From a virus (taxonomy: Duplodnaviria; Heunggongvirae; Uroviricota; Caudoviricetes): a stretch of 64,000 bases of DNA. Shown here piece by piece: positions 50,776 through 51,756 of this stretch. Positions within the stretch are counted from its first letter, which is position 1, and every line of letters begins with the position of its first letter. The stretch lies in the IMG/VR virus record IMGVR_UViG_3300025327_000015, one strand, 5' to 3'. A model generated the notes under the pieces. It searched no databases. It worked only from the letters and a program-made list of their open reading frames with translations, and was not told the origin of the DNA. The position numbers and the translations under genes are program-made.

Positions 50776-51075
50776 TTGCGAGGGCGTTATCGGGAGGTAC
50801 ATATGAAGCGCTGGCACGAAGAACGTGTCCTTATGCTCCGTCGTTGGAAGATGGAGATGGAAAAGCACGACTATGACTGGCGCAATCCACCGGATCCGAA
50901 GTGCGATAAGCGAGCTTGCCATTGTGCGGCAGGAATCGGTTCAATGAGGAAACGGCGTCCTTATGACTGTGGGAATCCTCGCTGTGGCCTCTGTCACTTC
51001 GAGAAGTTCTGGATTCGCAAGAATCGCTATAACAAATTACGCAAGATCATCGAATTCGAGTTGGAGGTGTCCTAA
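50776..51075 (+). CDS. Cys-rich small protein
   Basis: CDKRACHCAAG...CGNPRCGLCHFEKF; TAATG overlap with next gene. Confidence 0.3.
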   Translation: MRGRYREVHMKRWHEERVLMLRRWKMEMEKHDYDWRNPPDPKCDKRACHCAAGIGSMRKRRPYDCGNPRCGLCHFEKFWIRKNRYNKLRKIIEFELEVS

Positions 51076-51756
51076 TGGAAGGCGTCATTATTGAAATCCG
51101 CGCAGCTGAAGGCGGTGACGATGCAAAAGATCTTGTCAAAGAACAGTTTTCTGTTTACATCACCTACTGCAAAAGAAGGCGTCTTTGACTATTCAATACT
51201 TGATGAGCGATCTGGAATGATCGTTGCTGAGATCCTTGGCGACGAGGCAGAAGTAGCATTTAGCAATGAATCCGGTGGTCATCGTTGGCAACGCATTCCA
51301 CCGAATGAGAAACGAGGTCGGCGTCATACCTCAACTGTCACCGTCGCTGTCTTCCCGATTATTCCTCCCCAAGATTGGGAATTTTCTGAAGGTGAGATCG
51401 AATGGGAGGCCATCTTAGGCACGGGTCCAGGAGGTCAGGCCCGCAATAAAACAGCAAATGTCATTCGAGCCACACATCTTCCAACGGGCATCTCAGTACG
51501 GATCTCAGATTCACGCTCACAGTGGCAAAATCGTCAGACTGCGTTTCGTTCTCTCGCAGCTCGTATCTCCGCTTACCATAAAGATGAACATTTGAAACGA
51601 GAAGCAAAAGAACGCCGAGAGCAGATCGGAAGTGGAATGCGAGGAGACAAGATTCGTACTGTCCGTCTACAAGATGGACGAGTTGTAGATCATCGAAGCA
51701 AGAAGAAGATGTCAATCGAACGCTATCTAGCCGGGCATCTCGAAGATCTGCACTAG
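51075..51756 (+). CDS. class I release factor homolog (PrfH/RF2-like, GGQ motif) requiring +1 frameshift at 51183..51189
   Basis: Frame 0 (ATG 51075) encodes MEGVIIEIRAAEGGDDAKDLVKEQFSVYITYCKRRRL then TGA; +1 frame continues DYSILDE...[35 protein letters not shown]; slip site CGU CUU UGA C with AGAAGG 3 nt upstream. Confidence 0.7.

Follow-up and report, generated by a model that had tools for sequence, protein, structure and literature searches.

A domain-1-less RF1-type release-factor gene of a tailed phage is probably expressed through a prfB-type +1 frameshift

We analyzed a 64,000-nucleotide stretch of DNA from a tailed phage (Caudoviricetes; IMG/VR record IMGVR_UViG_3300025327_000015), hereafter the window, and in it a release-factor gene at 51075–51756 that is interrupted by an early stop codon. 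The gene probably encodes a 226-residue RF1-type factor devoid of domain 1, which would be made only if the ribosome performs a programmed +1 frameshift of the kind known from prfB. This reading is built on the architecture of the gene, its conservation among homologues, the selection acting on the elements of the shift site, and the RF1-like fold and motifs of the product. The frameshift in the RF2 gene, prfB, is the textbook case of autoregulatory recoding and, to our knowledge, has so far been treated as unique to that gene. The comparison of homologous sequences strongly supports the view that a prfB-type cassette has evolved independently in a phage family of RF1-type genes, where it is found in UGA, UAG, and UAA forms.

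The gene is read in two frames. Frame 0 opens at ATG 51075, which overlaps the TAA of the preceding open reading frame (ORF, 50776–51075) in the string TAATG, consistent with translational coupling, and translates as MEGVIIEIRAAEGGDDAKDLVKEQFSVYITYCKRRRL before reaching the TGA at 51186–51188. TGA is the stop codon specific to RF2. The +1 frame, read from 51187, begins with DYSILDERSG, includes GTGPGGQ, and ends at the TAG at 51754–51756, so that fusion of the two frames between Leu37 and Asp38 yields a protein of 226 residues. The full site reads AGAAGG CGT CTT TGA C. The initial annotation, made from the letters of the window alone, had described the start codon, the coupling, the ribosome-binding site, the TGA, and the GGQ-bearing +1 frame, and all were re-read at the same places. 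Gene callers split the gene into ORFs of 37 and 179 residues. Its features are listed below (nt, nucleotides; SD, Shine-Dalgarno).

51063–51067 (+): ribosome-binding site GGAGG, read directly from the sequence, 7 nt 5′ of ATG 51075
51075–51185 (+): frame-0 segment from ATG 51075, codons 1–37, reading MEGVIIEIRAAEGGDDAK...KRRRL
51174–51179 (+): internal SD-like hexamer AGAAGG, 3 nt 5′ of the slippery codon; family consensus CGGAGG
51183–51189 (+): shift site CTT TGA C, with the slippery CTT at 51183–51185
51186–51188 (+): frame-0 TGA stop, at which termination gives a 37-residue peptide only
51187–51756 (+): +1-frame segment, codons 38–226 and TAG, encoding the remainder of domain 2 together with domains 3 (GGQ) and 4
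51298–51306 (+): Pro-Pro-Asn at the position of the RF1 "PxT" tripeptide anticodon; family consensus Pro-Pro-Thr
51430–51438 (+): GGQ catalytic motif, invariant in 89 of 89 family loci

In the window, three CTT-stop sites are preceded by 30 or more open codons and followed by 100 or more in the +1 frame; the one at 51183 is the site for which homology is shown on both sides. The two others lie at 16829–16837 (−) and 14256–14262 (+). In both, the +1 frame runs on for more than 180 codons, and that of the minus-strand site (CTT TAG) continues into a 381-residue gene at 15682–16827. Neither has an SD-like element, and both are probably chance occurrences.

On the evidence of its sequence and of a structural model, the product is an RF1-type class-I factor composed of domains 2 to 4 and is neither PrfH nor RF2. 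The 226-residue fusion contains the Pfam domains PCRF (residues 3–90) and RF-1 (residues 102–207) and aligns without a gap across the junction to residues 107–333 of ribosome-bound Thermus RF1 (PDB 4v4r); domain 1 is absent and the protein begins at domain 2 (RF1 residue 107). Its AlphaFold model, with a pLDDT (predicted local distance difference test) of 91.4, is closest to ribosome-bound RF1. The comparison with the four related families gave the following values, the last being template modeling (TM) scores.

RF1: NCBIfam 193–196 bits (TIGR00019, 193 for a cut-off of 423; NF001859, 196 for a cut-off of 400); PDB E 3e-42; Foldseek TM 0.89
RF2: NCBIfam 134 bits (TIGR00020, 133.8 for a cut-off of 370); PDB E 4e-23; Foldseek TM 0.81–0.85
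PrfH: NCBIfam 93 bits (TIGR03072, 92.7 for a cut-off of 166.65); PDB E 2e-14; Foldseek TM 0.64
ArfB: NCBIfam 30 bits for a cut-off of 100; PDB and Foldseek values not listed

All NCBIfam scores lie under the curated cut-offs because domain 1 is missing. The protein had been assigned to the PrfH/RF2 family in the initial annotation; translation of both frames, alignment, and the model favor RF1 instead, by E value over RF2 and PrfH and by TM score over PrfH. It also departs from RF2 in carrying PPN rather than SPF, in lacking domain 1, and in its low TIGR00020 score, and from the ArfB/ICT1 pattern in possessing the PCRF and RF-1 domains, with no C-terminal tail of the ArfB type substituting for domain 2.

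In the model, a strand (residues 3–12), a helix (residues 15–34), and a second strand (residues 38–45) follow one another, and the junction falls between the helix and the second strand. The frame-0 residues make up the first strand and the helix of domain 2, with a GG-x-D loop that aligns to the GG-x-E codon-recognition loop of RF1. Since the frame-0 part lies inside a folded domain, a product started downstream would lose part of domain 2, this loop included. The RF1 recognition residues Gln72 and Thr85 are near-invariant in the family. In RF1, Gln and Thr read the third base of the stop codon, and the Thr of the PxT tripeptide contacts its first and second bases. The tripeptide position is occupied by PPT in most members and by PPN or PPS in a minority, PPN being found in about a third of the frameshifted members; the Thr that contacts bases 1 and 2 is thus not strictly kept.

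The same frame switch is found across the homologues of the gene. A search among 5.8 billion proteins gave a family of proteins of about 225 residues that start at the same position and so lack domain 1; hits in IMG/VR number 391. About one-third of the best matches are short at the N terminus, and their called N termini consist of out-of-frame residues followed by x-Phe-(Asp/Glu/Ser), because CTT-TGA or CTT-TAG reads so in the +1 frame. Locus DNA was fetched for 80 viral and 80 genomic loci, and the family comparisons cover 89 loci, referred to where needed by L numbers. Frame 0 gives way to the +1 frame at exactly query residue 37 in 50 loci (40 viral, nine from bacterial genomes or metagenome-assembled genomes (MAGs), and the window), some of which are near-duplicates, but most of which share only about 40–60% protein identity. 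Their junctions are distributed as follows.

CTT-TGA: 41 of 50 loci
CTT-TAG: 7 of 50 loci
CTT-TAA: 1 of 50 loci
TTT-TAG: 1 of 50 loci

A frame change at one and the same residue in so many loci goes well beyond chance. A further 27 database proteins have called N termini of the form x-F-(D/E/S), consistent with the same shift, which brings the shifted genes to 76 (51 TGA, 24 TAG, and 1 TAA). The 179-residue downstream ORF was found on 14 contigs from several samples. At 51183–51189, where the initial annotation had allowed for a sequencing error, four independent assemblies covering the site are identical to the window over all 682 bases, and the shift is kept in diverged relatives. A sequencing or assembly error or a decaying pseudogene, to which a single-base frame break in one metagenomic contig would usually point, as would a gene called in two pieces, is effectively refuted by these identical assemblies, by the recurrence of the break in 50 loci and 27 database proteins, and by purifying selection on both halves together with nucleotide-level selection on the flanking codons.

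The family may reach beyond phages. A shifted copy is present on the complete chromosome of the myxobacterium Archangium gephyra (L081, NZ_CP102578.1, 3537004–3549664; gene at 6001–6661 of the locus), where the site reads CGGAGG GGC CTT TAG C; its neighbors include a glycosyltransferase and a beta-propeller protein, and no phage hallmark genes were found within 6 kb. Similar shifted copies occur in Myxococcota and Bradymonadia MAGs. Comparison of the DNA with GenBank phages by blastn gave no match, and the protein-level matches among GenBank phages were only huge-phage metagenome records, unannotated at the locus, and true RF1 genes in mis-binned "phage" records.

Selection acts on the shift elements at the nucleotide level. 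In the 50 shifted loci, positions −12 to −7 are C-G-G-A-G-G at 74–92% each, always 3 nt 5′ of the slippery codon, with the exact hexamer CGGAGG in 28 of them; the slippery CTT is kept in 98%, and the stop is followed by C in 72% of the loci, by G in 22%, by A in 6%, and by T in none. A T after the stop provides the strongest termination context and a C a poor one. The window has C at this position; at the genuine TGA stops of the window, the usual next base is T or A rather than C. The predicted pairing of the 15 upstream bases with the anti-SD sequence of 16S rRNA averages −8.3 kcal/mol in shifted genes, to be compared with −0.9 kcal/mol in the in-frame homologues and −2.8 ± 2.7 kcal/mol elsewhere in the same shifted genes. 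The Arg-Arg pair that forms the SD-like element is written CGG-AGG in 28 of 32 cases, when about 2% would be expected: elsewhere in the shifted genes, CGG and AGG account for 18% and 10% of Arg codons, respectively. In-frame homologues carry CTC, TTT, TTA, or TGG at the slip position, with neither a CTT-stop nor an SD-like element. At the protein level, the 37 frame-0 residues are 59% identical on average between pairs of shifted genes, and the remainder of the protein 52%. No RNA structure flanking the shift site was detected by mRNA folding (z = −0.02). Transcriptional slippage was considered and rejected, as the T-run is only three bases long. The prfB-style +1 frameshift at CUU-UGA-C put forward in the initial annotation is upheld by the approximately 76 homologues, the identical assemblies, and the selection on the flanking elements, and we regard a genuine programmed +1 frameshift as highly probable.

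By analogy with the slip in prfB (PMC5009743, PMC10885494), expression would proceed as follows. The ribosome would translate 37 codons and arrive with CUU in the P site and UGA, in the poor context UGA-C, in the A site. Termination by host RF2, yielding a useless 37-residue peptide, would then compete with a slip in which peptidyl-tRNA-Leu re-pairs in the +1 direction from CUU to UUU, favored by the pairing of the SD-like element, 3 nt upstream, with the anti-SD sequence. Decoding would resume at GAC (Asp) and the factor would be completed. As termination and slip compete, the lower the RF2 activity per ribosome, the more product should be made, and expression in inverse relation to host RF2 activity is the most economical inference. 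In this way the gene would sense the termination capacity of the host, and its product would add RF1-type activity (UAA, UAG) and free limiting RF2 for the many UGA stops of the phage. In the UAG-stop relatives, the same device would amount to true RF1-type autoregulation, with an output that increases when RF1 activity is low. Given that the product looks RF1-specific, the UGA versions, that of the window included, would be cross-regulated rather than autoregulated. This specific logic of RF2 sensing and load balancing seems to us an even proposition.

Several points weigh against this explanation of the gene as a whole. The AGAAGG of the window has a predicted pairing of −4.7 kcal/mol, which lies at the 25th percentile of the background and within its range. 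The initial annotation had seen a near-copy of the prfB site: CTT-TGA-C and the 3-nt spacing do agree, but the SD-like element is weaker than was implied when set against the family mean of −8.3 kcal/mol, and the likeness of the flanking peptide to RF2 (L-DY and YL-DYD) merely mirrors the common nucleotides CTT TGA CTA. The nearest shifted relatives, L166 and L167 (about 61–63% identity), read CTT-TAG-C and have no SD-like element; with an element that is weak or absent in this subclade, the efficiency of frameshifting may therefore be low. The Asn found in the window in place of the RF1 Thr makes the codon specificity of the product uncertain. An RF1-type product could not feed back on UGA, the stop of two-thirds of the family, and the benefit of cross-regulation is a rationalization. 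Stop identity changes between close relatives (TGA, TAG, TAA), and such swapping fits the idea that any weak stop suffices as well as it fits RF2 sensing. It is from the analysis of sequences that we infer frameshifting, its efficiency, its dependence on RF2, codon specificity, and activity without domain 1.

The product might instead read the stop of its own shift site, either as an omnipotent factor or with the PPN and PPS versions recognizing UGA, which would make the gene a true copy of the RF2 loop. Such direct autoregulation would explain why a single protein family has all three stops at its shift site (51 TGA, 24 TAG, and 1 TAA), and it is in line with the variation of the PxT position (PPT, PPN, PPS, PPH, with Asn at the Thr position in the window) and with the alignment of an Arg, as in RF2, to RF1 Ile192 (GRRHTS). 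The tripeptide does not, however, covary with the type of stop, each of PPT, PPN, and PPS occurring with both TGA and TAG; the only recognition column associated with the stop (residue 83, Arg) is enriched with TAG, opposite to what an RF2-like switch would produce; and the family is closer to RF1 than to RF2 by sequence and fold. We therefore consider direct autoregulation unlikely.

A stop-codon-independent rescue factor of the PrfH or ArfB kind, acting with Ro60 and an RNA ligase on ribosomes that host ribotoxins have damaged and with a frameshift that senses stalled or terminating ribosomes in general, is a quite unlikely alternative to the RF1-type reading. Domain 1 is absent, as in PrfH, and family genes often lie beside transfer-messenger RNA (tmRNA) genes. 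The window also encodes a Ro60/TROVE-vWA protein (26509–28182, +), followed by an RLIG1-like RNA ligase ORF (28356–28916, +), and in L166 the same pair (Ro60, 54% identity, 4391–6049; RLIG1-like, 6103–6696) is located directly downstream of the release-factor gene. The initial annotation had joined Rsr, the ligase, and the release factor into a damage-response toolkit: both genes exist, but they are 23 kb from the release-factor gene in the window and adjacent to it only in L166, so that the idea is weakly supported; Ro60 is found near the gene in only one or two loci. In the window, the Ro60 region is adjoined by a tRNA-Leu (25605–25675) and an HNH endonuclease (25706–26209), and an Rfam scan of the window returned only tRNAs, with no Y RNA near Ro60 at the gathering threshold. 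PrfH forms a conserved operon with the RNA ligase RtcB2. This analogy, also drawn in the initial annotation, finds no counterpart here: no conserved neighbor was found within ±3.5 kb of the gene in the 89 loci, apart from artifactual antisense ORFs and small clusters such as HNH endonucleases, and no RtcB was present among the Pfam-tested neighbors in the window (a methylase, HTH, VWA, and Clp_N proteins, and several family-less ORFs). A codon-independent factor would moreover have no need of the RF1 stop-codon recognition residues, which are kept family-wide; the PrfH score of 92.7 is far from the cut-off of 166.65 and the fold match is poor (TM 0.64, as against 0.89 for RF1); and an ArfB-type C-terminal tail replacing domain 2 is lacking.

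The stop could also serve as a fixed-ratio attenuator that holds a toxic factor at a low level, or as a means to make the 37-residue peptide, without any sensing of release factors. Interchangeable shift-site stops and the weak or absent SD-like stimulator of the window subclade are compatible with this, and harm from over-produced release factors has been reported (PMC12421855). Low expression could, however, be reached more simply with a weak ribosome-binding site; the 37-residue peptide is a piece of a folded domain; a poor termination context (+4 never T) is strongly selected and so, in most members, is an SD-like stimulator, which argues for a tunable competition; and independent lineages have converged on the same early position with in-frame stops. 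A fixed-ratio attenuator is in our view improbable.

These last lineages, which represent 29 of the 89 loci, stay in one frame throughout and have, between codons 36 and 54, one or two in-frame stops (TGA or TAG). Together with the 50 loci that have the +1 slip site, an early stop would gate the gene in 79 of the 89 sampled loci. The in-frame-stop loci are listed here; the release-factor gene begins at about position 6001 in most of these locus sequences.

Stop in the codon immediately following residue 37: L003 (TAG), L004, L064 (TGA)
Other in-frame-stop loci: L049, L056, L058, L061, L066, L069, L073, L075, L076, L078, L079
Other in-frame-stop loci: L015, L033, L036, L082; L025, L041, L042, L051, L067
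Other in-frame-stop loci: L006, L012, L034, L038, L039, L057

The three loci of the first line nest inside the shifted clade in a neighbor-joining tree. The other in-frame-stop clades have either a TGA at residue 37 itself or, in the 16 codons that follow, one or two stops. At one and the same alignment column, TGA in some loci is replaced by TAG in others; the columns concerned are variable, and Trp does not occupy them in other homologues. In AT-rich loci, reading on past the TGA of neighboring long ORFs extends them by only a few codons, which identifies TGA as a real stop there, as it is in the window. The swapping within columns, the variable non-Trp columns, and these real TGA stops argue that the stop itself is selected, rather than being the product of a genome-wide code in which TGA specifies Trp. 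Stop-codon reassignment was rejected as an explanation on the ground that TGA is used as a real stop in the window and in AT-rich loci; coding density under codes 4 and 15 is too crude a measure to judge reassignment, and recoding of late genes only, judged from 12-kb loci, may occur in the phages with in-frame stops.

Several in-frame-stop loci harbor amber-suppressor tRNA(CUA) genes 1–2 kb away. CUA-anticodon tRNAs were located in L015 (7641–7713 and 10115–10186), L033 and L036 (7538–7610), L082 (7560–7632), and L068 (7731–7807), and tmRNA genes in L015, L033, L036, L082, L037, and L050; the distance of these tRNA and tmRNA genes to the RF1-like gene is 1–4 kb. For one phage to encode both an amber suppressor and a factor of the RF1 type, whose targets include UAG, is an odd pairing. 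We also observed tRNA-Trp(CCA) genes near release-factor genes with an in-frame TGA, in L038 (1511–1587, 13 nt downstream) and L012 (7975–8048); the window has a tRNA-Trp(CCA) at 31177–31248 (−).

When compared with known systems, the cassette shares with that of prfB the CUU on which the slip takes place, a stop in the A site, the weak +4 C, the absence of downstream RNA structure, in most of the family (more weakly in the window) a GGAGG-type element 3 nt upstream, a location early in a class-I release-factor gene, and a competition between termination and slip (PMC5009743). In prfB the shift takes place at codon 26, within domain 1 (PMC5009743), whereas the present site is at codon 37/38 and aligns to about residue 161 of E. 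coli RF2, in domain 2; this different position argues for an independent origin. The prfB motif never uses TAG (PMC12421855), unlike the present family with its UGA, UAG, or UAA, and in-frame prfB genes are likewise reported to have no shift elements (PMC12421855). The gene further differs from prfB in being RF1-like, devoid of domain 1, and phage-borne, with UGA versions that would cross-regulate. Bacterial RF1 (prfA) is the best match in sequence and structure, with the GGQ motif, the Gln and Thr residues and, in most family members, P-x-T; the lack of domain 1, the scores of 193–196 bits for cut-offs of 400–423, and the PPN of the window set the gene apart from it. PrfH (RFH) has the GGQ motif and no domain 1 either, and differs in the points given above, namely the retention here of the RF1 recognition residues, the low model score, the weak match in fold, and the lack of an RtcB partner.

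A viral termination factor that needs recoding for its own synthesis is known from Mimivirus and Megavirus, the Mimivirus eRF1-type gene requiring one frameshift and one readthrough (PMC3521657). That factor is an archaeo-eukaryotic eRF1 homologue of amoebal viruses with both events in one gene. The present factor is a bacterial-type RF1 of phages with one event per gene and an SD-stimulated cassette, in a family that has both frameshift and in-frame-stop versions. Huge phages and stop-codon-recoded phages carry RF1 and RF2 genes, often beside tRNA genes, and the reports on them mention no truncation, frameshifting, or in-frame stops (PMC7162821; Borges et al., preprint). A 2016 review by Atkins et al. 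described a UAG/RF1-gene counterpart of the prfB device as unknown, the giant-virus gene being the one case that it noted (PMC5009743). When 12,753 genomes were surveyed in 2025, prfA showed no programmed frameshift and TAG did not occur in the prfB motif (PMC12421855), and every CUU-stop entry in RECODE is prfB (PMC10885494). We found no earlier description of an RF1-type frameshift gate in the literature, most subscription journals lying outside our coverage.

The window belongs to a tailed phage with a tape-measure gene (9512–13474), a terminase (47196–48734), collagen-like fibers, and seven tRNAs, and uses the standard code, with 42 TGA, 28 TAA, and 11 TAG stops. The release-factor gene comes last in a plus-strand cluster, after an N6/N4 DNA methylase and two small ORFs. 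Two features flank it.

50776–51075 (+): upstream Cys-rich ORF of 99 residues, coupled by TAATG, with no Pfam or PHROG family
51762–51789 (+): promoter-like TTGACA-16-TATCAT, with 11 of 12 matches to the consensus, a match to the consensus only

With the promoter-like site directly 3′ of it, the release-factor gene is probably the last of its transcription unit. The Cys-rich ORF recurs only in the same phage and, elsewhere placed, in L166; we rejected it as a split-off domain 1, as it matches no family and is not conserved beside the gene. Family genes are typically embedded in phage tRNA arrays, which reach 37 tRNAs in 12 kb, and in some cases have a tmRNA gene beside them. In L166, a homologue of ribosomal protein S12/S23 (2479–2781, Pfam E 3.6e-21) is encoded 630 bp upstream of the shifted gene. 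The window also encodes a stand-alone Clp_N protein (53258–53833, −), a vWA protein (52046–52876, +), and collagen-repeat proteins that are probably fibers (19292–21118, −, and 6226–7359, −).

For those who annotate phage genomes, the family carries a warning: gene callers split or truncate its members, here into 37 and 179 residues, so that they are mis-annotated in phage catalogues. A compact RF1 of three domains is also of interest in its own right: which codons it reads and how it turns over when domain 1 is missing could be instructive for research on release factors and for the engineering of the genetic code. The diversity of the shift sites offers a set of natural experiments on how the identity of the stop, its context, and the strength of the SD element affect +1 frameshifting, and the gene of the window provides a testable case of a virus that would sense the termination capacity of its host. 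We suggest tentatively, as a possibility rather than an expectation, that gating by an early stop is a general property of the phage RF1-like family, whose members would act as sensor-effectors of host termination capacity that rebalance RF1 against RF2. If this is true, the family holds both the RF1/UAG counterpart of RF2 autoregulation and the once-hypothesized early in-frame stop that is read through when release factor is scarce, two arrangements that reviews have called unknown in bacteria, and it may be tied to the control that phages exert over the meaning of stop codons, amber-suppressor tRNA and tmRNA genes being located 1–2 kb away in several loci.

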